Below are positions 8,095 through 45,660 of a DNA stretch of 64,000 nt, in pieces. Below the pieces are notes generated by a model. That model was not told the origin of the DNA. It did not search any database and saw nothing but the letters and a program-made list of their open reading frames with translations. The translations under genes were made by a program, and so were the position numbers. The DNA is from an uncultured beta proteobacterium (GTDB lineage Bacteria; Pseudomonadota; Gammaproteobacteria; Burkholderiales; Rhodocyclaceae): the NCBI GenBank assembly GCA_903848955.1, contig CAINHS010000122.1, forward strand, positions 647 to 64,646. Direction: 5' to 3'. Within the stretch, counting starts at the first letter, position 1. Each line of letters starts with the position of its first letter.

Positions 8095-8190
8095 TCACCG
8101 CAGAGGCGCAGAGGCGCAGAGAAATGCAAAGACCTGCAATGCTTGTGCCTTCCTCTGCGCTACCTCTGCGCCTCCGCGCCTCTGCGGTAA
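8095..8190. repeat. Palindromic intergenic element with internal 8-nt repeats (copy 1)
   Basis: Left arm ACCGCAGAG-GCGCAGAG-GCGCAGAG (8097-8121). Right arm CTCTGCGC...CTCTGCGC-CTCCGCGC-CTCTGCGGT (8153-8188). Confidence 0.85.
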
Positions 8191-8235
8191 AGCCTTTCCC
8201 TCTGCCGCCTTTCACCGGCCCCACCTGATCAGATC

Positions 8236-9315
8236 ATGGCGAACAAAATTACCGTAATCATCGTCGACGATTCGGCCGTGGTGCGCCAGGTGAACCGCGA
8301 AACCCTGGAGCGCGAAGCGGACATCGAGGTCATCGGCGTCGCCTCCGATCCGCTGTATGCCCTGGACAAGATGAAAGTGCAGTGGCCGGACGTGCTGGTG
8401 ATCGACATCGAAATGCCGCGCATGGACGGCCTGACCTTCCTCAAGAAGATCATGAGCGAACATCCGACGCCGACCATCGTCTGCTCCTCGCTCGCCGAAA
8501 AGGGCGCGGCGGCAACCATGGATGCACTCGCTGCCGGTGCGCTGGCCATCATCACCAAGCCCAAGATGGGGGTGAAGCAGTTCCTCCAGGATTCCAGCAA
8601 CGACCTAGTGTCGGCGGTGCGCGCCGCCGCCCGCGCCAACATGCGCCGGGTCACGCCCGGTGCGGCGCGGCCGTTGGCGCCGCCGCCCAAGCTGACGGCG
8701 GATGCCATGCTCGCGGCGCAGGCCGCCAGCAGCCGCGCCATGGCCAACACCACCGACCGGGTGGTGGCCATCGGCACCTCCACCGGCGGTACGCAGGCGC
8801 TGGAAGCGGTGCTGACGCGTCTGCCCAACGTCGGCAGCGGCATCGTCATCGTCCAGCACATGCCGGAAAAATTCACCGCCATGTTCGCCGAACGCCTGAA
8901 CAGCCTGTGCAAGCTCGAGGTGCGCGAGGCGCAGAACGGCGACCGCGTCATGTCCGGCCGCGCCCTGATCGCCCCGGGCGGCCGCCACATGATGCTCAGG
9001 CGCAGCGGCGCCCAGTATTACGTCGAGGTGGCCGACGGTCCGCTGGTGAATCGCCACAAGCCCTCGGTCGATGTGCTGTTCCGTTCCGTGGCGCAGATCG
9101 CCGGACGCAATGCGCTGGGCGTGATCATGACCGGCATGGGCGACGACGGCGCGCGTGGCATGAAGGAGATGCACGACGCCGGCGCCAGAACGGTGGCCGA
9201 AGACGAATCGACCTGCGTCGTGTTCGGTATGCCGAAGGAGGCGATCAAACTCGGCGGCGTGGACCGGATCGTTCCGCTCGACGCCATCCCCGCTGAAATC
9301 ATCTCCTACGGCTGA
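8236..9315 (+). CDS. cheB: Chemotaxis response regulator methylesterase CheB
   Basis: Receiver domain (DIEMP) plus esterase motifs GTSTGG, QHMP and TGMGDDG. Confidence 0.95.
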
Positions 9316-9331
9316 ACGTCGGAGGCAAACC

Positions 9332-9934
9332 ATGCCAAGCCTAGCTCTGCCCGTCGAACACGATCCCAAGGACCTCGAGCGCCGCGCCCGCAACATCAAC
9401 CCGGGCGGCTGGACGGTCGAGACCGAACGCCCGATCACCACGCTGCTGGGTTCCTGCGTTGCGGTCTGCCTCTACGACCCCAAGCTGCGCCTGGCGGGCA
9501 TGAACCACTTCCTGCTGCCCAGCCGTGCCAAGACCGCCGGCGACGACACCGACGTCATCCTCGCCGGCGATTATTCGATGGAAGTGCTGCTCAATACCAT
9601 GCTCATGAAGGGCGCGGTCAAGCAGCGCATCGTCGCCAAGGCCTTCGGCGGCGGTACCATCGTGACCTCGATCCTGATGGCCATCGGCCAGCGCAATGCC
9701 GAGTTCGCCCAGGAATGGCTGGCCCGCGAAGGCATTGCCTTGACGGCGCAGGATTTCGGCGGCGCCTGGTCGCGCAAGGTGATCTTCACGCCCGATGGCG
9801 GCGATGCCTTCTGCCGGCGGCTGCCCATTACCCAGCCCGGCGTGCAGGATGTGGTCAAGGCCGAGCGCGACTACGAACAATCGCTGATCCGGCCGGCCAA
9901 GCCGTCGGGCGAAAAGAAGATCGAGCTGTTTTGA
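9332..9934 (+). CDS. cheD: Chemoreceptor glutamine deamidase CheD
   Basis: TLLGSCVAVCLYD, GMNHFLLP and KAFGGG motifs. Confidence 0.92.
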   Translation: MPSLALPVEHDPKDLERRARNINPGGWTVETERPITTLLGSCVAVCLYDPKLRLAGMNHFLLPSRAKTAGDDTDVILAGDYSMEVLLNTMLMKGAVKQRIVAKAFGGGTIVTSILMAIGQRNAEFAQEWLAREGIALTAQDFGGAWSRKVIFTPDGGDAFCRRLPITQPGVQDVVKAERDYEQSLIRPAKPSGEKKIELF

Positions 9935-9992
9935 AGCCTGTCTGTTTTCTTCCTTCGCCGCAATGACGAAGAAATATAGGAGAGGATAAATC

Positions 9993-10838
9993 ATGGACGT
10001 AGCCGCGGTATTGACCAGCGTTGCCAAATCGGCGGCGCATGACGACCTGATTTTTCCGACCACCACCGAAATGGCGCTCAAGGTGCAGCGGGTGCTCGAC
10101 GATCCCGGCTGCTCCATCGATCAGCTGGCCAAGCTGGTGCGGGCCGATCCGCTGCTCTCGGCGAGAGTCGTGGCAGTCGCCAATTCGGTCATCTACAACC
10201 GTTCCGGCCGCGCCATCGACGATCCGAAAAGCGCCGTGTCGCGCATCGGTTTCAATACCCTGAGGGTGCTCGCCGCCGCGGTCGTGGTGCGCCAGATGGA
10301 AGGCATGGCGCACACCCCGGCGCACCGGCAGACGGCGGTGCGCCTGTGGGAGCACACCGCCCATGTCGCCGCACTGTGCCAGGTCATCGCCCGCCGTGTC
10401 ACCCATGTAAACCCGGACACCGCCTTTTTTGCCGGCATCATTCATGAGGTGGGCGGCTTCTACCTGATTTCCCGTGCCCGCGATTTTCCCGGCCTGCTGG
10501 AAGGCGCCAATGGCAGCCTGCTGGCCTGGGACGAAGGCGGTGCGGCCGAAGTCGGCCGTGCCGTGCTGCAGCGCCTGAGCGCTCCCGCGGCGGTGGTCGA
10601 GGCCATCGAAGGCCTCTGGCAGGGCTATCTCGCCATGCCGCCGCAAAGCCTCACCGACACGCTGCTGCTGGCCGATCAACTGGCGCCGGTGGAGTCGCCG
10701 CTGTCGCAACTCGCCGGCAACGGGCGCGAAGGCACCGAAGCGAACATCGACGTTGCGCTCGATGACCAGACCCTCTCCAGCATCCTCAAGGAATCGGCGG
10801 AAGAAGTCGAGTCGCTGATCGACGCGCTGCGCGCCTGA
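9993..10838 (+). CDS. HDOD domain protein
   Basis: DPLLSARVVAVANS, AVSRIGF and FFAGIIHEVG motifs. Confidence 0.88.
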   Translation: MDVAAVLTSVAKSAAHDDLIFPTTTEMALKVQRVLDDPGCSIDQLAKLVRADPLLSARVVAVANSVIYNRSGRAIDDPKSAVSRIGFNTLRVLAAAVVVRQMEGMAHTPAHRQTAVRLWEHTAHVAALCQVIARRVTHVNPDTAFFAGIIHEVGGFYLISRARDFPGLLEGANGSLLAWDEGGAAEVGRAVLQRLSAPAAVVEAIEGLWQGYLAMPPQSLTDTLLLADQLAPVESPLSQLAGNGREGTEANIDVALDDQTLSSILKESAEEVESLIDALRA

Positions 10839-13800
10839 TCATCCGACCGCCTGGCGGACGGCGTCGATCAGGGCCGTCAGTTCCTTGATCAGTGCGCTGC
10901 CGCAGTTATCGATGCTGTCTTTTGCCGCGCCGTCACGAACCGCCAGATGAAGCGCCTTCGCCGCCTCGGCGACCCGCATGGCACCGATCGTGCCGGCGGA
11001 ACCCTTGAGGGTGTGGGCCAGGTCCTTGAGACTGCCGAGATCATTTCCTGCCAGGGCTGCGGCGAGGCGCGGCAGGTCTTGGGCATGGCTGGCGGCGAAC
11101 ACCGCCAGCAGCTTGGCATGCTTCGCCGTATTGCCGTGCATCAGCGCCAGTCCGCGTTCGACATCCAGCCCCGGAACATATTCCAGGCGCCGCCGCCATT
11201 GTTCCGTGTCCGCTACCGGCTCCGCTGCCACCGCGGCCGCCGGCGGCGCCGTGCCGCCAGCATTTCCGGCGTTCGCCGGCAGCCACTTCAGCAGTATCGC
11301 GTAGAGCGCGTCGGGATCCACCGGCTTGGGGACGAAGTCGTTCATGCCGGCTTCCATGCAGGCGCGGCGATCGCCGTCGAAGGCGTTGGCGGTCATGGCC
11401 AGAATCGGTGTGCGGCTGCGGCCGGGCAGGGCGCGGATGACCCGCGTTGCCTGCAGCCCATCCATATCGGGCATCTGCATATCCATCAGGATCAGCGGGT
11501 AGTCGGTAGTCCGCGCACGCTCCACCGCTTGCCGTCCGTCGCTGGCGACATCCACCGCCAGACCGGCGCCTTCCAGCAGTTCCAGCGCGACTTCGCGATT
11601 GGTCGGGTTGTCTTCGACCAGCAACAAGCGGACGCCGCCATGATGCTGTCGCAGTTCGGCCTCGGCATCCACCGCCAGTTCGGCCACGGCGGGCGGCATC
11701 ATGCCGCGGCCGCGGCCGAGGCGGGCGGTGAACCAGAAGGTGCTGCCTTTGCCCGGCGTACTGTCAACGCCGACTTCGCCACCCATCAGTTCCGCCAGCC
11801 GGCGGTTGATGACAAGTCCGAGGCCGCTGCCGCCGTACTGTCGCGCCGTCGAGGCGTCGGCCTGCTCGAAGGCATGAAACAGGCCGGACATCTGTTCCGG
11901 GCTGATGCCGATGCCGGTGTCGGCGACCTCGAAGCGCACCAGGATGTCCGCGCCGTTGTCTTCGAGAAGGTGGGCGCGCAGGGAGACCGACCCCCGTTCC
12001 GTGAATTTGAGGGCATTGCTGATGTAGTTGACCAGCGCCTGCCGCAACCGCGTCGGATCGCCGCGCAACCAGAGCGGCACGCCGTCGGAATCAAAGCGGA
12101 TGGCCAGACCCTTGGCCCGGGCCTGGCCGGAGATCAGCGAACGGACATGGCCGAAGATCGCCGCCAGCGAGAAGTCGGTGTCCTCCAGGCTCAGCTTGCC
12201 GGCCTCGATCCTGGAGATGTCGAGAATGTCATTGATGATGGACAGCAGATGGTTCGCCGCAGTGTCGATCTTGCCCAACCGGCGCGCCTGCTCCGCGTTC
12301 GGTCCGGCGCGGCGCAGCAGGTGCGTGAGGCCGATGATGGCATTCATCGGGGTGCGGATTTCGTGGCTCATGTGGGCCAGAAAGGCGCTCTTCGCCAGGT
12401 TGGCGACTTCCGCCCGTTGCCGTGCATCTTCCAGTTGCGCGGTGCGGCTTGCGACCAGTTCCATCAGGCGATGATGGAACTGGTCGAGCTCGGCTTCGGC
12501 CTGCTTGCGTGCGGTGATGTCGGCATGGGTGCCGATGATGCGCAAGGGCTTGCCGTCCCCGCTGCGGCTGACCACCATGCCGCGATCGAGTATCCACATG
12601 TAGCTGCCGTCCTTGCAGCGGACACGGTGTTCGCTGGCGTAGACCGGTGTCCTGGCCTCGAGGTAGGCTTGCAGCGTGATCAGGACTGCGGCCTTGTCTT
12701 CGGGATGGATGCGGCTTTCCCATTCATCCAGGCCGTTGCCGACCTCGTCGTCGGCAAAGCCGAGCATTTCCTTCCAGCGCGGTGAGAAAAAAACCGTGCC
12801 GTCGGCCACGCTCCAGTCCCAGAGCCCGTCGCCGGTGCCTTCGATAGCGAAGCGCCAGCGATATTCGCTGTCCTTCAGCAACTGCTGGCTGCCCTCTATC
12901 TCGCGGGTCAGCCCTGCGGCGATGCGCGCTGCGTTTGCCCGCGTATTGATAACCGAGAGCACCAGGCCGGAAAGCAGCACACTGAGCGCAAGGCCGCCGA
13001 TCAGGGCCGCCCACGCCGGAGCGTGACTGATGGCCGCTGCCGCGGTCTGCTGGAATACCAGCAGCCACGAATGGCCGTTCAGCTCGAGCGTCCGCTGCTG
13101 ATGGAGCAGGTGGTTCCGCGCCGGCACCTGACCCGGACTGCTGGCGAACAGCAGCCGCGCCGGCAGCGCCTCAGGGCCGTCGTAGATGTGCAGGTCCACG
13201 GTGTTGCCGTCGCCGGCATCCCAGCCTTGCAGAATGCCGGCCATCAGATCCTGCATGCGGCAGCGGCTTGAAATCCAGCCGGTCAGCGCGGCGCGCTTCT
13301 GCGCCACGGTGTCCGTCGCCATGCCATTGCGATACACGGGAACATACATGACGGTTTCCGCCAGGAGTTCGGCCGCGCTCTCCGGCAGCCGTTCGATCTT
13401 GCCGCTCAGCGCCGCCCGCCCGCTGTCACGCGCCTGCTCCATGGCGGCGCGCCGCACCGGCTCGGAGAAGGCATCGAAACCGAAGGCGCGCAGATTGCCG
13501 CCGCTGAAGGGTTCGATATAGACGATGGAGCTGTAGCCGGCTCGCTCGCCGGCCGGATGAACGCTGTAGTCCGGAAAACCTTCGCGGCGGATCCGGGCGA
13601 CGTGGCTGGCGAGTTGATCGCGGCCGATAACCTGGTTGAACGCCAGTTCCTTTTGGGCGGGAACAGTCTCTTCCAGCCGCAGTTGGTCGACCCAGGCGCG
13701 CCACTGTTTGCGATCTGCCTTGTCCGCTGTCGAAAAAAGCGCTGCGCCGCCGCGCAGGATCAGCGCTTCGGTGCCGAGGCGTTCCCGGATCTTGAGGGTG

Positions 13801-13949
13801 ATCTGATCGCTGGTAAAGGCGAAATGCCGCGCGCCATCCTCTTCGATGCCCTGCCAGACCTGCAGGCTGGTGACCACCGTCAGCAGAATCCCGGCGCCCA
13901 GCGTTGCCCAGGCCGGCCCGCTTTTTCGCCATGGCTGCGTGCTCAACAT
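10839..13949 (-). CDS. Hybrid sensor histidine kinase (CHASE, PAS, HisKA, HATPase, REC, Hpt)
   Basis: CHASE-like [70 protein letters not shown]. Confidence 0.92.
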
Positions 13950-14037
13950 GCTGTCCGCAATTCGCGCAGTAGAGTCGCCTGGCGCATGGTCATTGCCGCT
14001 GCGAGCCTGGAATCAAGTGATCGGCGCGGCGCGGGCG

Positions 14038-17190: not shown

Positions 17191-17198
17191 GCCGGTCG

Positions 17199-25884: not shown

Positions 25885-26622
25885 ATGAACTACCACTGGA
25901 ACTGGGGCATCTTCCTCGAGCAGGTCAAAGGTGGCGACGAAACCTACCTCGACTGGCTGCTGACCGGCTTGGGCTGGACCTTGGCGGTGTCGCTGACGGC
26001 CTGGGTGATCGCGCTGACTCTCGGCATCTGCATCGGCGCCTTGCGCAGCATGCCTTCGCGCCTGCCGGTGATGCTCGGCAATGCCTGGGTCGAGTTGTTC
26101 CGCAACATTCCGCTGCTGGTGCAGATGTTCCTCTGGTTCTTCGTGATGCCCGAGTTCCTGCCGCGCGACTGGTCGCTGTGGGTCAAGCAGGACATGCCCG
26201 CCAAGGAATTCCTCACCGCCGCGCTGTGCCTCGGCTTGTTCACCTCTGCCCGCGTTGCCGAACAGGTGCGCGCCGGGGTCGGCAGCCTGCCGCGCGGCCA
26301 GCGCGATGCGGCTCTGGCGCTGGGCCTGACGCTGCCGCAGACCTACCGCCACGTGATCCTGCCACAGGCCCTGCGCATCGTCATCCCGCCGCTGACCTCG
26401 GAGTTCATGAACGTGTTCAAGAACTCTTCGGTAGCCTTTGCCATCGGCGTGCTGGAACTCACCTTCCAGGCGCGGCAGATGCAGGAGGACTCGGAACAGG
26501 GTATCGAGACCTTCCTCGCGGTGACTCTGCTCTACTTCATCTGTGCCTTCGCCGCCAACCGCGGCATGGTGCTGATCGAGGCCCGCACGCGGGTCCCCGG
26601 CCTCATCGCGCGGACCGGCTGA
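25885..26622 (+). CDS. gltJ: Amino acid ABC transporter permease
   Basis: MNYHWNWGIFL, ELFRNIPLLVQ and an EAA-loop-like segment. Confidence 0.85.
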   Translation: MNYHWNWGIFLEQVKGGDETYLDWLLTGLGWTLAVSLTAWVIALTLGICIGALRSMPSRLPVMLGNAWVELFRNIPLLVQMFLWFFVMPEFLPRDWSLWVKQDMPAKEFLTAALCLGLFTSARVAEQVRAGVGSLPRGQRDAALALGLTLPQTYRHVILPQALRIVIPPLTSEFMNVFKNSSVAFAIGVLELTFQARQMQEDSEQGIETFLAVTLLYFICAFAANRGMVLIEARTRVPGLIARTG

Positions 26623-26641
26623 GCATGGCAAAGACAAGGCA

Positions 26642-26714
26642 TACCGCAGAGGCGCAGAGGAAATCTTCTTCGCGCTGTTGCAGTTCTCTGCGAATCCTCT
26701 GCGTCTCTGCGGTA
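26642..26714. repeat. Palindromic intergenic element with internal CGCAGAG repeats (copy 2)
   Basis: TACCGCAGAGGCGCAGAGG ... CTCTGCGAATCCTCTGCGTCTCTGCGGTA, with a perfect 10-bp terminal inverted repeat. Confidence 0.85.
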
Positions 26715-26746
26715 GATGTTCAGCTCTTCTTTCGCAGACTCTGAAC

Positions 26747-27409
26747 ATGGGCGAATTCGACTTCACCGTCTGGCAACCGAGTCTGCCTTTCATCCGCGAC
26801 GGACTGCTGTTCACGCTGCGGCTGACGCTGGTCGCAATGAGCGGCGGCATCGTCATCGGTACCCTGCTGGCTCTCGCCCGGCTGTCGCCCGTCGCGCCCC
26901 TGTCACGCATCGCCGGCGCCTATGTCGACCTGATGCGTTCGGTGCCGCTGGTGCTGGTGATCCTCTGGTTCTTCCTGGTCATTCCCTTCATCAGCGGCGC
27001 GCCGGTCGGCGCCGAAACTTCCGCCATCATCACCTTCACTGCCTTCGAGGCCGCCTTCTATTGCGAAATCATGCGCTCCGGCATCCAGAGCGTGCCGCGC
27101 GGGCAGGTCGATGCCGCCCGGGCGCTGGGCCTCGGTCAGGCGCAAACCATGATCCATGTGATACTGCCGCAGGCGGTGCGCAACATGCTCCCGGTGCTGC
27201 TGACGCAGACCATCGTGCTGTTTCAGGACACCTCGCTGGTGTATGCCATCGGCGCCAAGGACATGCTCAAGGCTGCCGACATCGTGGGCAAGAACTACAA
27301 TCGGCCGGTCGAGATGATCGTGCTTTCGGCCCTGATCTACTTCGTCATCTGTTTCAGCCTGTCGCTGGCGGTAAAGCAACTGCAAAAAACCGTCGCCATC
27401 ATTCGCTAG
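26747..27409 (+). CDS. gltK: Amino acid ABC transporter permease
   Basis: MGEFDF..., DLMRSVPLVLVILWFF, EIMRSGIQSVPRGQ, FQDTSLV. Confidence 0.85.
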   Translation: MGEFDFTVWQPSLPFIRDGLLFTLRLTLVAMSGGIVIGTLLALARLSPVAPLSRIAGAYVDLMRSVPLVLVILWFFLVIPFISGAPVGAETSAIITFTAFEAAFYCEIMRSGIQSVPRGQVDAARALGLGQAQTMIHVILPQAVRNMLPVLLTQTIVLFQDTSLVYAIGAKDMLKAADIVGKNYNRPVEMIVLSALIYFVICFSLSLAVKQLQKTVAIIR

Positions 27410-32149: not shown

Positions 32150-32154
32150 GGCGC

Positions 32155-35548: not shown

Positions 35549-36961
35549 ATGATGACCCCCCAGGACGTAGTCAAACTGGTTGAAGAAAAGGAAGTTCGAT
35601 TTGTCGATTTCCGCTTCACCGACACCCGCGGCAAGGAACAGCACGTAGGAGTTCCGGTCTCCCATTTCGGCTTGGAAAAATTCGAAGACGGCCATGCCTT
35701 CGACGGCTCCTCCATCGCCGGCTGGAAGGGCATCCAGGCCTCCGACATGCAGTTGATGCCGGATGCGAACACCGCCTACATCGATCCCTTCATGGACGAG
35801 ACCACGCTGGTACTGACCTGCGACGTGGTCGAACCGGCCGACGGCAAGGGCTACGACCGCGACCCGCGTTCGATTGCCAAGCGCGCCGAGGCTTATCTCA
35901 AGTCCTCCGGCATCGGCGATACCGCCTTCTTCGGCCCGGAACCCGAATTCTTCATTTTCGACGCCGTCGAATGGAAGATCGACATGTCCGGCTCCTACTG
36001 CAAGGTCATCTCTGAAGAAGCCGCCTGGGCCTCGGCCGACAAGTTCGAAGCCGGCAACAGCGGCCACCGTCCCACCGTCAAGGGCGGCTACTTCCCGGTG
36101 CCGCCGGTCGACAGCCTGAACGACATCCGCGCCCAGATGTGTCTGGCGCTGGAAGCCTGCGGCGTGCCGGTGGAAGTTCATCACCACGAAGTCGCCACCG
36201 CCGGCCAGTGCGAAATCGGCACCAGGTTCGGCCCTCTGGTGCAGCGCGCCGACTGGACCCAGATCCTCAAGTACATCGTGCACAACGTCGCCCACAGCTA
36301 CGGCAAGACCGCGACCTTCATGCCCAAGCCCATCGTCGGCGACAACGGCTCCGGCATGCACGTGCATCAGTCGATCTGGAAGGACGGCAAGAACCTGTTC
36401 GCCGGCAACGGCTATGCTGGCCTGTCCGAGACTGCGCTGTACTACATCGGCGGCATCATCAAGCATGCCCGCGCCCTGAACGCCATCACCAACCCGCTGA
36501 CGAATTCCTACAAGCGCCTGGTGCCCGGCTTCGAAGCTCCGGTCAAGCTGGCCTACTCGGCGCGCAACCGCTCCGCCTCGATCCGCGTTCCCTACGTGCA
36601 TAACGACAAGGCGCGCCGCATCGAAGTGCGCTTCCCGGATCCGGGCGCGAATCCTTATCTGGCCTTTACCGCCATGATGATGGCCGGTCTCGACGGTATC
36701 CAGAACAAGATCCACCCCGGCGATCCGGCCGACAAGAATCTGTACGACCTGCCGCCGGAAGAAGACGCGAAGATCCCGACCGTCTGCTCCAGCCTGGAAC
36801 AGGCTCTGGAGTACCTCGACAAGGGCCGCGATTTCCTGTTGCGCGGCGGCGTCTTCAGCAACGAGATGATCGATGCCTACATCGAGCTCAGGAATGAGGA
36901 AGTCACGCGTTTCCGCATGACCACCCATCCGCTCGAGTACGAAATGTATTACTCGATCTGA
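35549..36961 (+). CDS. glnA: Glutamine synthetase type I
   Basis: RBS AGGAG. Motifs [45 protein letters not shown], and adenylylation-loop DKNLYDLP. Confidence 0.98.
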
Positions 36962-36984
36962 TCCGGGCTGAAAAATCCGGAAGC

Positions 36985-37015
36985 AAAAGGACGGGCGTTG
37001 CCCGTCCTTTTTTTT
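36985..37015 (+). terminator. Rho-independent terminator after glnA
   Basis: AAAAGGACGGGC-GTT-GCCCGTCC followed by a T8 tract. Confidence 0.9.
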
Positions 37016-37118
37016 CGCGTCGCGGAGGCCGGCAGCGGTATCCCGGCGACGGGTCCGCGGCGTCCGCACTGCAGATGGTTTGCTGGCGATGGTCTGGCAA
37101 TTGACATAAACTCGCGCC

Positions 37119-37559
37119 ATGAAGATTCTCCTCCTTGCCGTTACGTTCCTGCTGCCCCTGACAGGGCTTGCCAGTACGCTCTACAAATGCACTGACGCGG
37201 CCGGCGTGGTGCTGTACACCAACCAGAAAGCCGGCAACAAGAACTGTACGGTGTTGTTGCAGCAGGTGCCGGCGCCTGCTCCGGCTGCCGCCGCCGGCAG
37301 CAAACACGCCGCTGCGGCGGCGACGCCCGGTGATTTCCCCCGCGTTTCGGGAAGCGAGCAGAAGGCTCGCGACAGCGACCGCCGTGCAATTCTCGACAAG
37401 GAACTCGCCAACGAACTGCAGCACGCCGAAAAGGCCCGCAAGGCCCTGGCCGATGCCGGCAGCCAGCCCGTCGACAAACTCCAGCCTTTGCGCGACACGG
37501 CTGCGCTGCACGAGCGCAACATCGAGTCGCTGAAAAAGGAAATCGGCAACCTGCGCTGA
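37119..37559 (+). CDS. Exported DUF4124-like protein
   Basis: Signal peptide, LYKCTDAAGVVLYTNQ, coiled-coil C-terminus; the usual position between glnA and ntrB in betaproteobacteria. Confidence 0.7.
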   Translation: MKILLLAVTFLLPLTGLASTLYKCTDAAGVVLYTNQKAGNKNCTVLLQQVPAPAPAAAAGSKHAAAAATPGDFPRVSGSEQKARDSDRRAILDKELANELQHAEKARKALADAGSQPVDKLQPLRDTAALHERNIESLKKEIGNLR

Positions 37560-37615
37560 TCCGGCGTCAATTTGACATCCAGTGGCTGGTGCGCTTCTTG
37601 CACTGAACTGAAACA

Positions 37616-38683
37616 ATGACCGCCACAAAACCTTTCCATGCCTTCAGCGGATTGGACTTGCTCTCCACCGCCGTGGTGCTGGTCGATGCCAAGCTGATCG
37701 TCCGCCATGTCAATCCGTCGGCGGAGAACCTGTTTGCCATCAGCTCGCGCCAGCTGCTCGGGCACCCCTTGCAGCGGCTGGTGGGCGACACGCCCGAACT
37801 CTCCGCCGCACTCGACAATGCGCTGAAGAACAACTGGAGCTATACCGGTCACAACATCCTGATCAAGCGCGCACCCGAGGTAAAGCTGCACGTCGATTGC
37901 ACCGTAACCCCGGTCGACGCCAACCCGGCGCGCCTGCTGCTGGAAGTGCGCCCCATCGACCAGCAGTTGAAGGCGGCGCGCGAGGAGCAGTTGGCGCAGC
38001 AGCAGCAGGCCAACCGCGAACTGGTGCGCAATCTGGCGCACGAGATCAAGAATCCGCTCGGTGGCATTCGCGGCTCCGCTCAGCTGCTGGAGCGCGAACT
38101 GGCCAGCGAGCCGCTCAAGGAATATACCCAGGTCATCATTGAGGAAGCCGACCGCCTGCAGGACCTGATGCAACGCCTGCTCTCTTCGCATCGCGTGATG
38201 CAGCCGGCGCTGGTCAGCATCCACGAGATTCTCGAACGCGTGCGACGGCTGATCCACGCCGAATACCACGATGTCACCGTGCGCCGTGACTACGATACTT
38301 CGCTGCCCGACATTACCGGCGACCGCGAGCAGTTGATCCAGGCGATTCTCAATATCTCGCGCAACGCCGCACAGGCGATGCAAGGCAAGGGGGAAATCCT
38401 GTTCTGCACGCGGGCGGCGCGACAGGTCACGCTGGCCAAGAGGCGCCACCAGCTGGCACTTGAATTGCAAGTCATCGACAACGGCCCGGGCATACCCGAC
38501 AACATTCGCGACAGGATCTTTTATCCGCTGGTGTCGGGCCGTGAAAACGGCAGCGGGCTTGGCCTCACCATTGCCCAGAGCTTTGTCCAGCAACACGGCG
38601 GAACCATTGATGTCACATCGCGTCCGGGTTACACCTGCTTTTCGCTGATGCTGCCGCTGAACCGAAAGAAAAAGGAAGATTGA
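37616..38683 (+). CDS. glnL: Nitrogen regulation sensor kinase NtrB
   Basis: PAS, LAHEIKNPLGGIRGSAQLL, DNGPG, GSGLGL. Confidence 0.95.
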   Translation: MTATKPFHAFSGLDLLSTAVVLVDAKLIVRHVNPSAENLFAISSRQLLGHPLQRLVGDTPELSAALDNALKNNWSYTGHNILIKRAPEVKLHVDCTVTPVDANPARLLLEVRPIDQQLKAAREEQLAQQQQANRELVRNLAHEIKNPLGGIRGSAQLLERELASEPLKEYTQVIIEEADRLQDLMQRLLSSHRVMQPALVSIHEILERVRRLIHAEYHDVTVRRDYDTSLPDITGDREQLIQAILNISRNAAQAMQGKGEILFCTRAARQVTLAKRRHQLALELQVIDNGPGIPDNIRDRIFYPLVSGRENGSGLGLTIAQSFVQQHGGTIDVTSRPGYTCFSLMLPLNRKKKED

Positions 38684-38771
38684 TGAACGACTTGTCCCCC
38701 GGCTCCTGCTCCGCAAGAAGGAGTAACTGCCGCGCTGCCTTGGGGTCGCGGCGAGGTGCCAGACCATGAAC
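38683..38771 (+). repeat. 83-nt insertion at the ntrB/ntrC junction flanked by an ATGAAC direct repeat
   Basis: ATGAAC at 38683-38688 and 38766-38771; internal hairpin GCCGCG (38729-34) / CGCGGC (38747-52). Only one copy in the window. Confidence 0.5.
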
Positions 38772-40178
38772 CCTGTCTGGATCATCGACGACGACCGTTC
38801 CATCCGCTGGGTGCTGGAAAAGGCCCTCGGTCGCGAGGGCATTCCATCCAAGTGCTTCGGCTCCGCCGACGAAGCGCTGGCGGCGTTCGACCACGGCCAG
38901 CGGCCGCAGGTTCTGGTTTCCGACATCCGCATGCCCGGCAGCAGCGGGCTTGATCTGTTGCGGCACGTAAAAGCCAACTATCCCGATCTGCCGGTCATCA
39001 TCATGACCGCCTATTCCGACCTTGATTCCGCCGTCGCCGCGTTCCAGGGCGGTGCCTTCGAATACCTGCCGAAGCCGTTCGATGTCGATCAGGCCGTGGA
39101 CCTGGTGCGCCGGGCCATGACCGAGTCGTCGCACCATAATGGTGCGCCTATCGAAACCAGCAGCGTACCGGAGATTCTGGGTCAGGGTGCCGCCTTGCAG
39201 GAGGTCTTTCGCGCCATCGGGCGGTTGTCCCAGTCCCACGCCACCGTGCTGATCAACGGTGAGTCCGGCACCGGCAAGGAACTGGTGGCGCGCGCCCTGC
39301 ATCGCCACAGCCCGCGCAAGGACGCGCCCTTCATCGCCATCAACACGGCCGCGATTCCGCGCGACCTGCTCGAATCCGAGCTGTTCGGCCACGAAAAGGG
39401 GGCGTTCACCGGCGCCGCCGCGCTGCGTCGCGGGCGCTTCGAACAGGCCGACAACGGCACGCTGTTCCTCGACGAAATCGGCGATATGCCGGCCGAGTTG
39501 CAAACCCGGCTGTTACGCGTCCTCTCCGACGGCAACTTCTATCGCGTCGGCGGTCACCAGCCGGTAAAGTCCAACGTCCGCGTCATCGCCGCAACCCACC
39601 AGGACCTCGAAGGTCGCGTCAAGGACGGCCTGTTCCGCGAAGACCTGTTCCATCGCCTCAACGTCATCCGGCTGCGCCTGCCGCCCTTGCGCGAACGGCG
39701 CGACGACATTCCGCTGCTGGCCAAACACTTCCTGCAAAAGAGCGCCCAGGAACTCGGCGGCGAACCCAAGCGGCTGACCGATGCAGCGCTCAAGTACCTG
39801 CAGGGACTTGAGTTCCCCGGCAATGTGCGGCAGCTGGAAAATCTCTGCCACTGGCTGACGGTGATGGCACCGGGGCAAAGCGTGGACATTCCCGATCTCC
39901 CCGCCGAATTGCGCGACGAACCGCGGCGCGATTTGCCCGCCAACTGGAGTGCGGCGCTGGCGGGCGAAGCCGACCGGCTGCTCGGTTCTGCGCCCGGCGA
40001 GGTTTTCGACAAGCTTACGCGCCAGTTCGAAGCCACGCTGATCCGGCGCGCGCTCAACGCCTCCGGCGGGCGCCGCATCGATGCTGCGCAACTGCTCGGC
40101 ATCGGCCGCAACACCATCACGCGCAAGATTCAGGAGCTTGGCCTCGACGGCGTCAAGGCCGGTACGGAGGAAGACTGA
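38766..40178 (+). CDS. glnG: Nitrogen regulation response regulator NtrC
   Basis: REC, AAA+ GESGTGKE, GAFTGA, FREDLFHRLNV, Fis-type HTH LLGIGRNTITRK. Confidence 0.97.
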   Translation: MNPVWIIDDDRSIRWVLEKALGREGIPSKCFGSADEALAAFDHGQRPQVLVSDIRMPGSSGLDLLRHVKANYPDLPVIIMTAYSDLDSAVAAFQGGAFEYLPKPFDVDQAVDLVRRAMTESSHHNGAPIETSSVPEILGQGAALQEVFRAIGRLSQSHATVLINGESGTGKELVARALHRHSPRKDAPFIAINTAAIPRDLLESELFGHEKGAFTGAAALRRGRFEQADNGTLFLDEIGDMPAELQTRLLRVLSDGNFYRVGGHQPVKSNVRVIAATHQDLEGRVKDGLFREDLFHRLNVIRLRLPPLRERRDDIPLLAKHFLQKSAQELGGEPKRLTDAALKYLQGLEFPGNVRQLENLCHWLTVMAPGQSVDIPDLPAELRDEPRRDLPANWSAALAGEADRLLGSAPGEVFDKLTRQFEATLIRRALNASGGRRIDAAQLLGIGRNTITRKIQELGLDGVKAGTEED

Positions 40179-40184
40179 AGCCGG

Positions 40185-41003
40185 CTATTGCGGCTGCAGG
40201 ATCTTCAGCAGCAGCGCCTTGACCACCGCCGGCTCGAAAGGCTTGTCGCAGATGCCCGAAACGCCGGCTTCCTCGACTGCGGCGAGCCGGCCCTGATCGG
40301 ATTCGCTGGTGACCATCAGCACCGGCACCGAGTTCTGCCAGCTCTTATGGCGGATATGATCGATCAGCGCCTTGCCGTCCATCTCCGGCATGTTGTAGTC
40401 GGTCACCACCAGGTCGACCAGGTTTTCGGCCATCACCGCCACTGCCGCGACACCGTTTTCCGCCTCGACAAAGTTGCGGATGCCGAGATTCTCCAGCACG
40501 CGCCTGATGAAGCCACGCGCGCTGCGGCTGTCGTCCACGATCAGGACACGCAGTCCTTCGAGATCGATCCCGGCTTTCTCGAGGCCGGCGTCGTCGTCGT
40601 CGAGGTAATCCAGCGTGTTGCGCAAGGCCTTGCGCAGCTGCGCCTCTGAAAACGGTTTCGGCAGAATGCCGCAGACGCCGCTTTGCCGCACCGGATCGAG
40701 CACCTGCGGCCGCGTTTCGCTGGAAACGAGTATGAAGGGCACGTGCTCGAAATCCGGGTCGGCGCGCATGGTCCGGATCAGTTCGGTGCCGGACAGGTCC
40801 GGCAGGTACAGCGCGCTGATGACCACGCTGGGCAGTGCTTCGCGCAACAGCGCCAGCGCCTCGGCGGCGGTATTGCAACGCCGCACCTGGGTCACACCGA
40901 GCTGCCCCAACAGGGCGATGATGATGCGGCTCTGAACGGCCGAGGGTTCGACCAGGTAGACGATCAGTTCCGAAAATGCAGTAAGCACGATGGCAGCCAA
41001 CAC
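40185..41003 (-). CDS. Response regulator with two tandem receiver domains
   Basis: REC1 (VVISALYLPDLSG, lacks Asp) and REC2 (VVTDYNMPEMDG, canonical). Confidence 0.8.
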   Translation of the reverse strand: MLAAIVLTAFSELIVYLVEPSAVQSRIIIALLGQLGVTQVRRCNTAAEALALLREALPSVVISALYLPDLSGTELIRTMRADPDFEHVPFILVSSETRPQVLDPVRQSGVCGILPKPFSEAQLRKALRNTLDYLDDDDAGLEKAGIDLEGLRVLIVDDSRSARGFIRRVLENLGIRNFVEAENGVAAVAVMAENLVDLVVTDYNMPEMDGKALIDHIRHKSWQNSVPVLMVTSESDQGRLAAVEEAGVSGICDKPFEPAVVKALLLKILQPQ

Positions 41004-41081
41004 AGTTCACGGCCTTCCAGTATAGTCAATCCCGCCATTTCTGATTTTGTGTCACCGCCTCGTCGCCACACGGGACATTTC

Positions 41082-41849
41082 ATGCCAGCCAGCATTGCCG
41101 CCATTGCCGCCAGGCTCGGAGCACTCGCCTGCCGCTTCGACATCGACATCCTGTCGCGCTGCGATTCGACCAACGCCGTCTTGCTGAGCCGCGCCGAAGC
41201 CGGCGCGCCTGGCGGCACGGTGGTCATCGCCGAGGAGCAAACCGCCGGCCGCGGCCGGCGCGGCCGCAGCTGGTTCGCCAGCCCCGGCGACAGCCTCACC
41301 TTCTCCCTGCTCTGGCGTTTTGCACCGGGCACGCCGCCGGCCGGCCTCTCGCTCGCGGCGGGTGTCGCCGTCGGCCGCGCCCTGGCGCAGTCCGGCGCCG
41401 GCGAAACCTTGCTGAAATGGCCCAACGACATCCTCAAGGAAGGCCGCAAGCTCGGCGGCATTCTGGTCGAACTGCTGCCCGGCGCCCCGCATGTTGCCGT
41501 CATCGGCATCGGTCTCAATCTGCGCCTGCCCGCCGCCATGCCTGCCGACGTCCGTGCCGCCTCGGCCGCGATCGGCGCCGGCAGCGACGCCGATGTCTTG
41601 TATGCCGCCGTGCTGGGCGAACTGCTGGCTACGCTGGAAACCTTCGCCGCCGCCGGCTTTGCCGCGATTCGCGCGGAGTGGATGGCGCGCCATGCCTGGC
41701 CCAATGCCAAGGTCATCCTGTCATCCGATTTCGGGCCGTCCGGCGAGGGCATCTGTCGCGGCGTCGACAGCGACGGTGCGCTGCTGCTCGAGGCCGATGG
41801 CCGCATCGAGCGCATTCTCTCCGGCGAAGTATCGCTGCGAGCGGTTTGA
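41082..41849 (+). CDS. birA: Biotin-[acetyl-CoA carboxylase] ligase (no N-terminal HTH)
   Basis: DSTN, QTAGRGRRGRSW, KWPND, KLGGILVE, GIGLN. Confidence 0.93.
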   Translation: MPASIAAIAARLGALACRFDIDILSRCDSTNAVLLSRAEAGAPGGTVVIAEEQTAGRGRRGRSWFASPGDSLTFSLLWRFAPGTPPAGLSLAAGVAVGRALAQSGAGETLLKWPNDILKEGRKLGGILVELLPGAPHVAVIGIGLNLRLPAAMPADVRAASAAIGAGSDADVLYAAVLGELLATLETFAAAGFAAIRAEWMARHAWPNAKVILSSDFGPSGEGICRGVDSDGALLLEADGRIERILSGEVSLRAV

Positions 41850-41858
41850 AAGACAGCC

Positions 41859-42566
41859 ATGATTCTTTGCCTTGACGCCGGCAACTCGCGACTGAAGTGC
41901 GGCCTTTTCGACGGCAGCGGCTGGCGCATGCAGGGGGCGCTGGACTACCAGGCTTTCGATGATCTGGTCGCCGAACTGCCGCAGATGCCGGCACGCATCG
42001 TCGCCTGCAACGTGGCCGGCGAACCGATGCGGCTGCGCATAGAAGCGCTGGCAGGAAGCCTTGGCATTGCCCTCGACTGGCTCACCAGTTGCGCCGCCGC
42101 CTGCGGCGTGAGCAACGGCTACGACAAGCCGGCACAGCTCGGCGCGGATCGCTGGGCGGCACTGATCGCGGCGCGGGCGCTGCAGGCAGGGCCGTCCGTG
42201 GTGGTGATGGCCGGCACCGCCACGACCATCGACGCACTGGACGGCAACGGCGTATTTCGCGGCGGTCTGATCCTGCCCGGCCTGAGCCTGATGCGCGCCG
42301 CATTGGCCGGCAATACCGCCGACCTGCCGTATGCCGACGGCCATTACAAATCGCTGCCGACCAACACTGACGATGCCATCGTCAGCGGCGCGCTGCATGC
42401 CACGCTGGGCGCCATCGCACGCATTCACCAGACGCTGGGCGCTGATGCCGTATGCCTGCTGTCCGGCGGTGCGGCGCCGGCACTGGCGCCGCAGCTGGAT
42501 TTGCCGCATCGCCTGACGGACAATCTGGTGCTGGAAGGCCTGGCCCGCTACAGCCAGACGGTCTAG
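41859..42566 (+). CDS. coaX: Type III pantothenate kinase
   Basis: LDAGNSRLK, LGADRW, GTATTID, GGLILPG. Confidence 0.93.
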   Translation: MILCLDAGNSRLKCGLFDGSGWRMQGALDYQAFDDLVAELPQMPARIVACNVAGEPMRLRIEALAGSLGIALDWLTSCAAACGVSNGYDKPAQLGADRWAALIAARALQAGPSVVVMAGTATTIDALDGNGVFRGGLILPGLSLMRAALAGNTADLPYADGHYKSLPTNTDDAIVSGALHATLGAIARIHQTLGADAVCLLSGGAAPALAPQLDLPHRLTDNLVLEGLARYSQTV

Positions 42567-42633
42567 GCTAATCGTCCCGCGGCAGCACCGCACTATTGTT
42601 GACATCAAGTGCTTTTCAAACTAGCTTGCTTCG

Positions 42634-43965
42634 ATGCCTTCGCCACATCAACTGCCGGCTCGAAAACTCCCTGACGATGATCCGGCGCGGATGTTGTTGC
42701 ACGACGAAGTGCACGCGCGTCCCACGGCGCGGATCCGGCTGCCGGCGCTGGTGGTCTACATCGCGGTGCTGAACGAGGGTGTTTCACGGCAGCAGGAGTG
42801 CGAGCACCTGAGGTTGCTGCCCGGTCAGGAGGCCCTCGGCAGCGACCGCCTCGACGGCAATTTCCTGCGTCTGCGGTTTGAGCGATTCACGCTCAAGTGG
42901 GAACGGCACACCGAGTTCACCCGCTACTCGGTGGTGCAGTCGTTGCCGGCGGAAGCCTTGCTCGACGCTCATGATCCCGACCTGCATTCGGCATCGGCCC
43001 TGAGTGCCGAATGGCTGAGCGGGATTCCGGGCCGCACCATCTCGGCCGTTTTCCTGGCGATGGTTCACGGCGAGCTTGGCAGGCCGGAGGCGATAGTGAC
43101 GAAAGCGCAGTCGTGGTTCGGCGCGAATCCAATCGTTGCATCGTTGATGGGAGCCAACGGACATTCCTGCGCCTTTGCGGACTTCCAGGTCAGGCCGGAC
43201 GGGTTCGAGCGCATGCTCGTCGTCGCGCCGGCAGACACCTCCGAAACCAGGCCGGGACGCATTGCCCAGCGCTTGCTCGAGATTGAAACCTACCGGCTGC
43301 TGGCCCTGAAGGGCTTGTTTGTGGCAAAGGACATAGGGCCGATGCTGGCCCGCTCCGAGCATGCGCTGGCGGAGATCACTACCCTGCTTGAGGGAAAAAA
43401 GGATTCGGATCAGGAATTGCTGGAGCGATTGGTGTCGCTGGCGGCGGGAGTCGAGCGGGCAACGGCCCAGCACTCATTCCGGTTCTCTGCGACCAAGGCC
43501 TACGACGCTCTTGTCAGCCAGCGGATTGCCGAGCTGAGGGAAACAAGCATCCCCGGCAGTCAAAGCATCGGCGAATTCATGCAGCGCAGATTGTCGCCGG
43601 CCATGGCCACGGTGGCAGCGACGGCGCAACGCCTGACTTCGCTTTCCGAAAGAATCTCGAGAGCCAGCGCGCTGCTGCGGACCCGCGTCGATATCGCCAC
43701 CGAAGTGCAGAACCAACTGCTGCTCGAGAAATTGACGCGCGGCCAGGAAATGCAGTTGCGGCTGCAAACTACGGTTGAAGGCTTGTCCATCGCGGCGATC
43801 TCCTACTACGTCGTGAGTTTGCTGGTGTACGCGGTAAAGGCATTGAAGGGCGCGGGAGTTCCCGTCGATCCGGAAATTACCGCCGGCGCGCTGATTCCTC
43901 TGGTGCTGTGGGTGGTATGGCGAACCACGCAGCGGATTCACAAGAAGTTCCACGCCGGCCACTGA
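42634..43965 (+). CDS. DUF3422 family membrane-anchored protein
   Basis: LHDEVHARP, KWERHTEF, QRLLEIETYR, LRTRVDI, QLRLQTTVEGLSIAAISYY. Confidence 0.85.
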   Translation: MPSPHQLPARKLPDDDPARMLLHDEVHARPTARIRLPALVVYIAVLNEGVSRQQECEHLRLLPGQEALGSDRLDGNFLRLRFERFTLKWERHTEFTRYSVVQSLPAEALLDAHDPDLHSASALSAEWLSGIPGRTISAVFLAMVHGELGRPEAIVTKAQSWFGANPIVASLMGANGHSCAFADFQVRPDGFERMLVVAPADTSETRPGRIAQRLLEIETYRLLALKGLFVAKDIGPMLARSEHALAEITTLLEGKKDSDQELLERLVSLAAGVERATAQHSFRFSATKAYDALVSQRIAELRETSIPGSQSIGEFMQRRLSPAMATVAATAQRLTSLSERISRASALLRTRVDIATEVQNQLLLEKLTRGQEMQLRLQTTVEGLSIAAISYYVVSLLVYAVKALKGAGVPVDPEITAGALIPLVLWVVWRTTQRIHKKFHAGH

Positions 43966-44087
43966 AGACATTTCTGCGGGTTTGGCAGGCCAAGCGAATG
44001 CCCGGTTCGCGCTTTTGTCATGCGGCAAGCCACTTGATCACGCCGCCGGCATGACAGACAATGTGCCATCCGCCGCAGGAGTGTTCC

Positions 44088-44492
44088 ATGCCCATTCACT
44101 TTCTCGCCACGCTGCCGAACTTTCTCGCCTACCTTGGCGCCGCCATCGTCCTGCTGGTCGCCTTTGTCGCGATCTACCTCTATGTCACGCCCTACGACGA
44201 GATCGCGCTGATCCGCGCCAACAACAGCGCGGCGGCCATTTCGCTCTCAGGCGCGGTGCTGGGTTTCGCCCTGCCCATCGCCAACGTCATTGCCCACAGC
44301 GATACGCTGATTGATCTTGCGGTGTGGGGCGCGATTGCCGGCATCGTGCAACTGCTGGCCTGGGGCGTGGCGCGCCTGGCGCTGCCGCAACTGCAGCAAG
44401 ACATCGCCGCCGGACGCACGGCACCGGCTACCCTGATTGCCGCGCTGTCGCTTACCGTCGGCCTGCTCAATGCCGCCTGCATGACTTACTGA
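44088..44492 (+). CDS. DUF350 (YjfL-like) inner-membrane protein
   Basis: RBS AGGAG; four hydrophobic segments; VTPYDEIALIRANNSAAAI; ends LLNAACMTY. Confidence 0.85.
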   Translation: MPIHFLATLPNFLAYLGAAIVLLVAFVAIYLYVTPYDEIALIRANNSAAAISLSGAVLGFALPIANVIAHSDTLIDLAVWGAIAGIVQLLAWGVARLALPQLQQDIAAGRTAPATLIAALSLTVGLLNAACMTY

Positions 44493-44511
44493 ATCTACCA
44501 AGGAGACGCTC

Positions 44512-45531
44512 ATGGCACTCATGGATTTCATCAAGAAACAGTTCATCGACATCATCCAGTGGACCGAGCAGGACGACGACACCATGTCCTGGCGCTTCCC
44601 CATGGCCGAGTTCGAAATTCAGAACGGCGCCGCCCTGACGGTGCGCGAATCGCAGATGGCGGTGTTCGTCAATGAAGGCAAGGTGGCCGACGTCTTCGGC
44701 CCCGGCCAGTACAAGCTGACCACCCAGACGCTGCCGGTGCTGACCTACCTGAAGAACTGGGACAAGCTGTTCGAGTCGCCCTTCAAGTCCGACGTCTATT
44801 TCTTCAGCACGCGGCAGAAGATCGACCGCAAGTGGGGCACGCCGAACCCCGTCACCATCCGCGACAAGGATTTCGGCATGGTGCGGCTGCGCGCCTTCGG
44901 CATCTACGCCTTCCACCTCAGCGACCCCAAGGCCTTTCACACCACCCTCTCCGGCACCACGGAAAGCTACAGCACGGAGCAGCTCGAAGGCCAGTTGCGC
45001 AACACCATCGCCGGCCACATCGCCGACATCTTCGGCGAGTCCGGCGTGCCCTTCATCGACATGGCTTCGAACCAGGTCGAATTCGGCAATGCGCTGAAGG
45101 CCAAGATGGAGCCGATGTTCCAGGGCTACGGCCTGACGCTGGACAGCCTCAATGTGCAGAGCATCTCGCTGCCCGAGGAACTGCAGGCCATGCTCGACAA
45201 GCGCATCGGTGTGAACATGATGGGCGGCATGCAGGCCTACACCCAGTTCCAGACCGCGGAAGCGATCCCGCTGGCGGCGCAGAACGAAGGCGGTCTCGCC
45301 GGACTCGGCGCCGGTGTCGGCGTCGGCTTCGGCGTCGGCCAGCAGGTCGCGGCATCGATGGCGCAGTCGCTGAATCCGGCCGCCTCCAGCGCAGCGCCGG
45401 CCGCAGCCCCGGTATCGCCCGACGAAGTGGTGGCGACGATCGAAAAGCTGCATGGCCTGGTAGGCAAGGGCATGCTGTCGCAGGCTGAGTTCGATGCGAA
45501 GAAGGCCGAGTTGTTGAAGAAGCTCGGGTAA
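44512..45531 (+). CDS. SPFH (band 7)-domain protein, YdjI-like, with C-terminal SHOCT-like helix
   Basis: FIDIIQW, LTVRESQ, KWGTPNPVTIRDKDFG; C-terminal IEKLHGLVGKGMLSQAEFDAKKAELL. Confidence 0.85.
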   Translation: MALMDFIKKQFIDIIQWTEQDDDTMSWRFPMAEFEIQNGAALTVRESQMAVFVNEGKVADVFGPGQYKLTTQTLPVLTYLKNWDKLFESPFKSDVYFFSTRQKIDRKWGTPNPVTIRDKDFGMVRLRAFGIYAFHLSDPKAFHTTLSGTTESYSTEQLEGQLRNTIAGHIADIFGESGVPFIDMASNQVEFGNALKAKMEPMFQGYGLTLDSLNVQSISLPEELQAMLDKRIGVNMMGGMQAYTQFQTAEAIPLAAQNEGGLAGLGAGVGVGFGVGQQVAASMAQSLNPAASSAAPAAAPVSPDEVVATIEKLHGLVGKGMLSQAEFDAKKAELLKKLG

Positions 45532-45537
45532 AACCCG

Positions 45538-45660
45538 TTAGCCACAGAGCGTTTTGCGTGCCCTTGAATCCGCTGCGCGCGACGGCAACAGAGTTCACAG
45601 AGAAAAGCAAAGGCTGGCTCATGGTTTTTCCTCTGTGTCCTCTGTGATCTCTGTGGCTGA
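45538..45660. repeat. Palindromic intergenic element with internal CACAGAG repeats (copy 3, CAC variant)
   Basis: TTAGCCACAGAG...AACAGAG-TTCACAGAG / CTCTGTG-TC-CTCTGTG-AT-CTCTGTGGCTGA. Confidence 0.8.

Follow-up and report, generated by a model that had tools for sequence, protein, structure and literature searches.

The window analysed here, 64,000 nt of contig C122 from an uncultured beta proteobacterium of the Rhodocyclaceae (assembly of 3.62 Mb in 151 contigs, 99.97% complete; genome label G000), contains three palindromic elements built from tandem 8- to 9-nt units. On balance, we regard them as gene-less members of a system in which a small nuclease of the GxxExxY family (PF13366/TIGR04256) is accompanied by a cognate population of hairpin repeats. 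An earlier note on this DNA had described the three palindromes, and all were found at or near the positions it gave, copy 3 being slightly wider (45530–45668 vs 45538–45660). Its translations of the arms are also correct (TAEAQRRRE for copy 1, TAEAQRK for copy 2 and, on the minus strand, PQRSQRTQR for copy 3). No strand is assigned to the hairpins themselves.

Copy 1 (hairpin core 8097–8188) belongs to a subfamily with CGCAGAG units and an 8-nt period, and lies between cheR (7250–8071, + strand; PF01739, PF03705) and cheB (8236–9315, +; PF01339, PF00072). Its arms (8097–8121 and 8164–8188) are 25 nt long and 96% complementary. The left arm consists of three CGCAGAGG units (8099–8121), and the right arm of 1+3 units (8152–8186), the extra inner unit occupying 8152–8159. 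An open frame of 50 codons (8076–8228, +) spans the element, from 4 nt past the cheR stop to 7 nt ahead of the cheB ATG, and is probably the remnant start and arm-encoded frame of an ancestral, gene-bearing cassette. Copy 2 (26642–26714), of the same subfamily, separates two ABC permease genes (gltJ/gltK-like; 25885–26622 and 26747–27409, both + and PF00528); its 20-nt arms (26642–26661 and 26695–26714) are 95% complementary. A stop/start junction repeat brackets this copy (CTGAGCATGG at 26619–26628 (+) on the left and CTGAACATGG at 26741–26750 on the right), and the junction is present once only in the empty sites of the congeners G015 and G013. The ATG at 26625 starts a 39-codon frame across the element, with a TGA at 26742–26744.

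Copy 3 (45530–45668) represents a CACAGAG subfamily with a 9-nt period and GCC/GGC termini, and is located between an SPFH/Band-7 gene (44512–45531, +; PF13421) and a DUF4178 gene (45676–47628, +; assigned by Pfam), whose ATG overlaps a TAA (TAATG). The inverted repeat pairs 45530–45549 with 45649–45668; the right arm has three units (45631–45655), and a nested 38-nt segment (45550–45587) splits the left arm. Several CACAGAG elements with a 9-nt period contain such a segment of ∼36–40 nt (..TTGCGTGCC..GGATTCCGCTTCGCGGG..AACAGAG) in their left arm; copies are located at C121:11257 and C38:9229 of the same genome and in an arm of a gene-bearing cassette of the congener G005. The window holds a further small insert, of 83 nt, between ntrB-like and ntrC-like genes (38681–38771), which is outside the hairpin family and lacks both CRCAGAG units and a strong inverted repeat.

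Among the inverted repeats of the window, copies 1 and 2 are the best two and copy 3 ranks sixth. The two-unit pattern CRCAGAGNCRCAGAG, with at most one mismatch, matches six times where 0.23 matches are expected, and none of 100 shuffles reaches six. Copies 1, 2 and 3 are predicted to fold as RNA with −59.7, −47.3 and −60.2 kcal/mol, respectively (z-scores −8.6, −5.5 and −4.3). An Rfam 15 scan of the window at gathering score returned 0 matches, rRNA included, and terminator and promoter consensus scans of the elements found neither.

The three copies are part of a large family. Scanning the genome for clusters of at least two units yielded 165 clusters and 75 forward-then-reverse pairs with the strict motif, and 80 pairs with a relaxed core, compared with 2 for a reversed-motif control. 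CACGGCG units add another 12 pairs, bringing the total to ∼92 paired hairpins. The arm unit has a 7-nt core, C-R-C-A-G-A-G, and a period of 8 or 9 nt, and four subfamilies can be told apart by unit: CGCAGAG (8-nt period), CACAGAG (8-nt), CACAGAG (9-nt) and CACGGCG. The consensus sequences of the main subfamilies are ACC-(CGCAGAGG)x3 (n = 26), TTAGC-(CACAGAGNN)x3 (n = 22) and AC-(CACAGAGR)x3 (n = 22). The outer ends read ..AAAA..T.ACC/GCC; the termini quoted in the earlier note (ACC-GCAGAG and GCC-ACAGAG) are right, and conservation reaches ∼11–13 nt farther out, beyond the first unit and up to an A-run that is mirrored by a T-run at the opposite end. Arms of one subfamily are 81–90% identical among copies, whereas the central 20 nt of the loop are 26–27% identical, equal to unrelated flanks. 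A shared spacer was seen in one trio only (C57:8296, C76:7535 and C19:1064). Four copies have a derived arm signature in common (A-A-G in the left arm and A-A-A in the right arm) despite unrelated loops.

Three of the four subfamilies match the arms of decayed nuclease genes in the same genome. Two elements with long spacers enclose TIGR04256 matches (C98:15725–16197, 405 nt, and C7:76463–76714, 206 nt), and a third TIGR04256/PF13366 match (C28:3128–3349) lies inside CACGGCG arms at a pilB/pilC-like junction. These are the genome's only three matches to the family, all within arms and all broken, the C98 gene by a stop codon and a frame change, the C7 and C28 genes by internal deletions. The relics score 82, 44.6 and 39.7 bits (the cut-off is 35 bits), compared with 135–150 bits over the whole PF13366 profile for intact congener proteins. 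The system is extinct in this genome, with every nuclease gene broken and the hairpins fixed and static in the population.

Intact cassettes are found in related genomes. Our comparison covers 31 congeners with zero to two copies of the gene each, 15 of them without it. The full form is ∼0.5 kb long and consists of a gene for a 125–133-amino acid GxxExxY protein within inverted arrays of three to four units. G002 has an intact gene with CGCAGAG arms where the present genome has the C98 relic. Genes with CACAGAG 8-nt arms are intact between trpE and trpG in G015 and G042, and the same cassette is apparent in G010, G044 and G003, where it was read in reverse orientation only. G003 and G042 have intact genes with CACGGCG arms at the pilB/pilC-like junction, and G009, G018, G005 and G023 have intact genes with CACAGAG 9-nt arms upstream of serS; the G005 cassette shares its arm variant with copy 3. 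The earlier note had suggested that GxxExxY genes inserted into operons are flanked by similar repeats, which holds both for the matches in the present genome and for the intact congener genes. Of the two kinds of gene it had expected between the arms, only GxxExxY was encountered; the four-helix-bundle family TIGR02436 has no match in this genome, and no gene other than PF13366, transposases included, was found between arms here or in the relatives examined. Its proposal that the arms encode the N termini of the GxxExxY proteins applies to the CACAGAG 8-nt clade, in which the ATG is upstream of the arm, so that the arm encodes a disordered N-terminal tail (MNHRDTE...), and fails for two other clades (those of G011 and G017), where the ATG comes after the arm.

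The PF13366/TIGR04256 family is very large and has members in both bacteria and archaea. Across 41 congener and cross-phylum sequences, Gly-32, Gly-34, Glu-37, Tyr-40, Asp-77, Glu-87, Lys-89 and Gln-101 are invariant. The congener and cross-phylum proteins possess the GxxExxY motif and an intact PD-(D/E)XK set (E...D...E-x-K), unlike the three copies of the present genome. A search of the PDB by sequence with the intact proteins matched no solved structure. An AlphaFold model (mean predicted local distance difference test score, pLDDT, 90.9) gives weak best fold matches to Cas4 SSO0001, the AdnAB nuclease domain and lambda exonuclease, consistent with a minimal RecB/Cas4-like PD-(D/E)XK fold and a predicted nuclease.

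Another clade of cassettes uses CGCAGAT(TT) units, with genes in G046, G008 and G002 and gene-less hairpins in G018; none occurs in this genome. Open frames of 221–654 amino acids (in G010, G044, G002 and G009) cross GxxExxY genes into their neighbours, owing to arms without stop codons. Such arms yield spurious mini-ORFs (open reading frames), and automatic annotation may report fused proteins at these sites.

Each genome has its own type of unit, which goes with that of the arms around its resident gene. Large numbers of CGCAGAG dimers occur in four genomes only, G000 (82), G002 (31), G011 (109) and G018 (36), and the CGCAGAG-arm gene is intact in G002 and G011 and a relic in G000. The CACAGAG-arm genomes G003, G005, G017, G023, G042 and G044 contain 88–274 CACAGAG dimers and 0–1 CGCAGAG dimers, and G002 shows the reverse, with no CACAGAG dimer beside its CGCAGAG dimers. 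Hairpins are more abundant in gene-bearing genomes (Mann-Whitney p = 0.0025). A gene-less doublet population that matches the flanking repeats of a single-copy enzyme gene is the pattern by which REPINs are recognised; the present family shows this pattern with a different enzyme.

The same difference is seen at single orthologous sites. Downstream of rodA, the elements of G000 and G013 align over their flanks and loop (52% loop identity), whereas all seven units differ by G/A. At the serS site, where four species have the 9-nt CACAGAG cassette, this genome has a CGCAGAG hairpin with one inner CTCTGTG unit, and unit type also differs between species at trpE/trpG and at two further sites. From the genome-specific unit types, the shared arm signatures and the unlike loops, we infer that arms have been propagated or corrected between copies and that loops have not.

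The elements favour tight junctions between co-directional genes. Placement was scored against crude gene calls (3166 genes, 90% coding), and co-directional pairs flank 60 of 70 elements, compared with a background of 72% (p = 0.0065). Four candidates for elements inside genes turned out to be spurious antisense ORFs among these calls. The median gap is ∼19 nt from the upstream stop and ∼25 nt to the downstream start, such that the element and its outer ends fill the junction. The upstream stop reads (A/G/T)TGA in 28 of 54 cases, a context in which a start codon overlaps the stop. Arms are free of stop codons in every frame, and frames bridging from the stop to the next start are more frequent on the sense than on the antisense strand (25/54 vs 9/54, p = 0.0017). 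We considered selection for a translational relay; the strand difference is real, yet it is explained by the orientation of the ancestral cassette, whose start codon (seen four times as ATGAACCACAGAG, and as ATGAAAA.. in the CGCAGAG type) combines with the stop-free arms. Many seemingly orphan ATGs are likewise better read as the cassette's own start codon than as a duplicated junction. Repeats of 10–18 nt flank a few loci, and junction duplication was rejected as a general feature, being clear at gltJ/gltK and C141 and arguable at cheR/cheB and C15:79344.

Orthologous junctions differ widely in what they contain. The trpE/trpG junction is empty in G013 and G024, holds three different intact cassettes in G015, G011 and G017, an unrelated insert of ∼90 nt in G018 and G012 and, in the present genome, a G015-type cassette with an internal deletion. 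The cheR/cheB junction is empty in six congeners and has other inserts in G012 and G001; in G011 it accommodates a gene for a 435-amino acid ATP-binding protein (ATPase; G011:C8:95300–97050), whose start overlaps the cheR stop and which extends right up to the start of cheB. At the permease junction, G015 and G013 have no insert, and G018, G010 and G024 have a different element of 250–400 nt. Four congeners likewise have no insert at the SPFH/DUF4178 junction, and in G017 another palindrome disrupts the copy found there. The orthologous copy of G018 contains the same nested segment, and its loop is the reverse complement of that of copy 3, indicating that the spacer (45603–45630) was flipped between the arms. 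Three elements (C2:2121, C15:79344 and C15:83162) are found only in the present genome and their sites are empty in all eight relatives, which argues that new sites do arise; aligned to the empty sites, the three insertions reveal no common duplication. G011 has 5 of 15 examined sites in common with this genome (p ∼3e-6, assuming random placement of roughly 50 elements in 3000 junctions). Gain versus multiple loss, and conversion versus re-insertion, were judged by parsimony and by sequence alignments of single sites.

A second, unrelated family of inserts (150–400 nt) occupies congener junctions at cheR/cheB, the permease pair and a mreD/PBP2-like pair (G012, G001, G018, G010 and G024); its members run from about ATGAAAC.. 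to ..TTTCAC(G) and include long GC-rich palindromes. Junction inserts of G011, G017 and G012 share a small hairpin, CATTCCGGCGAA(A/C)GCCGGAATC. In G012 and G024, where the SPFH junction is "empty", the SPFH gene has 14 nt duplicated in tandem (GAAGAAACTCGG..) at its 3' end, and short stretches resembling element ends (GAACCTTTAC, CAGGTTTCC) are present within empty sites. Judging from these sequences, some empty sites may be scars of excision or decay.

Within the species, we found no presence/absence variation: all 21 contigs with an identical CheR and all 20 with an identical permease carry the element with the same spacing. The conspecific contigs that were sequenced differ by at most one single-nucleotide polymorphism, in an arm unit of copy 1 (8167, CTCTGCG vs CTCCGCG). 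The position is one that varies between unit variants elsewhere.

Proteins 53–77% identical to the congener ones occur in many phyla and lineages, including Planctomycetota, Acidobacteriota, Chloroflexota, Chlamydiota, Cyanobacteria, Methanothrix and a Methanophagaceae archaeon. Flanking inverted repeats exceed the 95th percentile of the control in 80% of 77 homologous loci. The cross-phylum arms belong to the same unit family, ACC-RC(N)RAG, homogeneous within each element, the unit after ACC being CACAGAG, CGCAGAG, CACGGAG, CGCGGAG, CACAAAG, CGCAAAG or CACGAAG. Gene and arms move as a single unit across phyla. Of 74 such loci, 43 have the gene in the same direction as both neighbours and 7 have it opposed to both (p = 2e-7).

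We conclude that hairpins and GxxExxY cassettes very probably form one family. Both origins that the earlier note had considered for the gene-less copies find support, footprints in the in situ deletion series at trpE/trpG, and derivatives resembling miniature inverted-repeat transposable elements (MITEs) in the dispersed subfamilies with shared derived arm signatures. A nuclease-driven mechanism for the arms is plausible, and we advance it tentatively. The cassette would lack a promoter of its own and rely on read-through from the host operon and on coupled translation, and its insertion into tight junctions would be tolerated thanks to arms without stop codons and an A-rich, Shine-Dalgarno-like outer end. 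The nuclease would recognise its own unit arrays, most likely as hairpin, cruciform or single-stranded DNA. Cutting at the arrays would lead to recombinational (ectopic) repair from other copies, and such repair would homogenise arms throughout the genome and occasionally seed new junctions. In its most far-reaching version, GxxExxY and unit-array arms would constitute a widespread, vertically kept REPIN/RAYT-like system that reads single nucleotides of the 7-nt core (CGCAGAG, CACAGAG or CACGGCG), rewrites, by cutting hairpin arms, ∼100 hairpins dispersed among operon stop/start junctions in concert and occasionally seeds new junctions; this version has some chance of being right, although we doubt it.

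Several findings weigh against a system of nuclease and cognate repeats. The link between hairpin abundance and the gene is moderate (Fisher 2x2 test at a cut of 20, p = 0.14). No gene matches the 36 CGCAGAG dimers of G018, and G020, an assembly 99% complete, contains 43 CACAGAG dimers but lacks the gene; G006 and G021, both incomplete assemblies, are further exceptions. The arms are well conserved in the present genome though it has no intact nuclease, and the elements are unchanged in ∼20 conspecific contigs at each of two window sites. No target-site duplication of fixed length was found, as direct repeats in the flanks barely exceed shuffled pairings (9% over the 95th percentile), and the unrelated loops are unlike those of simple copy-and-paste MITEs. 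Moreover, co-variation of gene and arms would also follow from physical linkage and descent, and nuclease action on the arms is something we infer.

The main rival is passive decay, in which each hairpin is an independent cassette insertion that has lost its gene, the nuclease never acts on gene-less copies, and arms resemble each other through shared descent and arm-to-arm correction within an element only. The decay series at trpE/trpG and two more internally deleted genes between arms are what passive decay predicts, and it also accommodates loops that are unrelated between copies and hairpins that are static among conspecific strains. It would require ∼90 separate insertions, however, with the gene removed each time by a deletion that stops exactly at the inner edge of the arms, and it leaves unexplained the derived signature shared by four copies with unrelated loops, the difference in all seven units at the orthologous G000/G013 element and the near-exclusive unit type of each genome. 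We therefore consider passive decay unlikely as a full account.

A second alternative holds that the hairpins benefit the host, as RNase III sites, stabilisers of 3' ends, relay frames or protein-binding sites of the repetitive extragenic palindrome (REP) or bacterial interspersed mosaic element type, with the nuclease as incidental cargo. Arms conserved above loops and neutral flanks, very stable predicted RNA hairpins, the enrichment of sense-strand bridging frames and the persistence of hairpins without an intact nuclease are all compatible with a benefit. The bridging frames are, however, accounted for by the ancestral cassette ATG and the stop-free arms. Many congeners have nothing at the orthologous junctions and show no sign of lacking anything, and unrelated insert families use the same junctions in other species, which weakens the case for a host function and makes the junctions look like a tolerated niche. 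A beneficial role is, in our judgement, distinctly improbable. That the elements are ordinary MITEs of a transposase-encoding insertion sequence, or REP/REPIN elements moved by a RAYT, is barely credible and largely refuted: terminal inverted repeats, high copy number and intergenic location are held in common, but the 99.97%-complete genome has no match to the RAYT/Y1 transposase family PF01797 (the same search is positive in 6 of 14 control genomes), PF13366 is the sole gene seen between arms, and the elements have no consistent target-site duplication, unrelated loops and no Rfam match. With many more genomic copies, an associated nuclease and a genome free of RAYT, the nuclease-linked origin suggested in the earlier note stands.

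The nuclease-and-repeat system that we favour resembles known systems in part. REPIN/RAYT systems consist of a small enzyme gene with its own palindromic repeats and gene-less doublets across the genome (PMC3116915, PMC3337134). Shared features are one or two enzyme genes per genome, each flanked by palindromes of its own type, gene-less palindromic doublets that number from tens to hundreds elsewhere in the genome, a gene at the same chromosomal site across related species and a repeat type that goes with each gene lineage. The enzyme is PD-(D/E)XK (PF13366) here, whereas RAYT is a Y1 (IS200/IS605-like) transposase; the arms are tandem arrays of 8- to 9-nt units instead of single REP hairpins, and the elements sit in operon stop/start gaps in sense orientation with unrelated loops. 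Ssn/NTS (SRM) systems pair small GIY-YIG nucleases with flanking hairpin repeats of 20–50 nt that are cut as single-stranded DNA, with a demonstrated effect on transformation (PMC11893778). In both cases, a single-domain nuclease gene is flanked on both sides by hairpin-forming repeats present in many copies genome-wide, repeat-rich genomes usually have the gene, and there are many nuclease-repeat pairs, each with its own specificity. The fold differs (PD-(D/E)XK, not GIY-YIG), the site-specific cutting of single-stranded DNA by Ssn is experimental whereas the present protein is a predicted nuclease, and the present repeats are arrays of units that strongly favour operon junctions.

Intervening sequences of 23S rRNA that bear an ORF, for example that of Coxiella with S23p (PMC4990558), offer a third comparison. 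Like the cassettes, they are selfish inserts of ∼0.4 kb within a host transcript, with a small ORF enclosed by a long stem of inverted ends, and the long perfect stem is a predicted RNase III substrate in both. The rRNA inserts are defined by a position in helix 25 or 45 of 23S rRNA and by RNase III excision. The host transcript here is an operon mRNA, all three window copies lying between protein-coding genes, and the cargo is GxxExxY in place of the four-helix-bundle S23p, which is absent from this genome. Judged by its enzyme, the hairpin/GxxExxY system therefore falls outside REPIN/RAYT, Ssn/NTS and the 23S rRNA intervening sequences alike. Correia/NEMIS elements are short inverted repeats that are co-transcribed with their neighbours, form RNA hairpins and duplicate a TA target, and we know of no nuclease gene associated with Correia elements; the present family differs in having no consistent duplication and a cognate gene-bearing form. 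Rickettsia palindromic elements are frame-open palindromes that insert in frame inside genes and are tolerated in translated sequence, to our knowledge without a nuclease partner. The palindromes described here are also open in reading frame; unlike those of Rickettsia, the four that seemed to lie inside genes of this genome proved to be artefacts.

A 2012 survey of the superfamily lists the function of the PF13366-type family as "Unknown" (PMC3424549), and in the full-text literature we found no published function or study of GxxExxY/PDDEXK_3 beyond that listing. The GxxExxY cassette with its hairpin repeats is apparently undescribed. If our reading is correct, it would assign a function to the PF13366 family of thousands of proteins; the cognate repeat population makes that function testable, with the natural G/A unit variants as built-in specificity controls. 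It would also join RAYT/REPIN and Ssn/NTS as a third system, independent of both, in which a small enzyme gene coexists with its own population of hairpin repeats. Finally, selfish DNA seems to have a common niche in operon stop/start junctions, which several unrelated insert families use within one genus.

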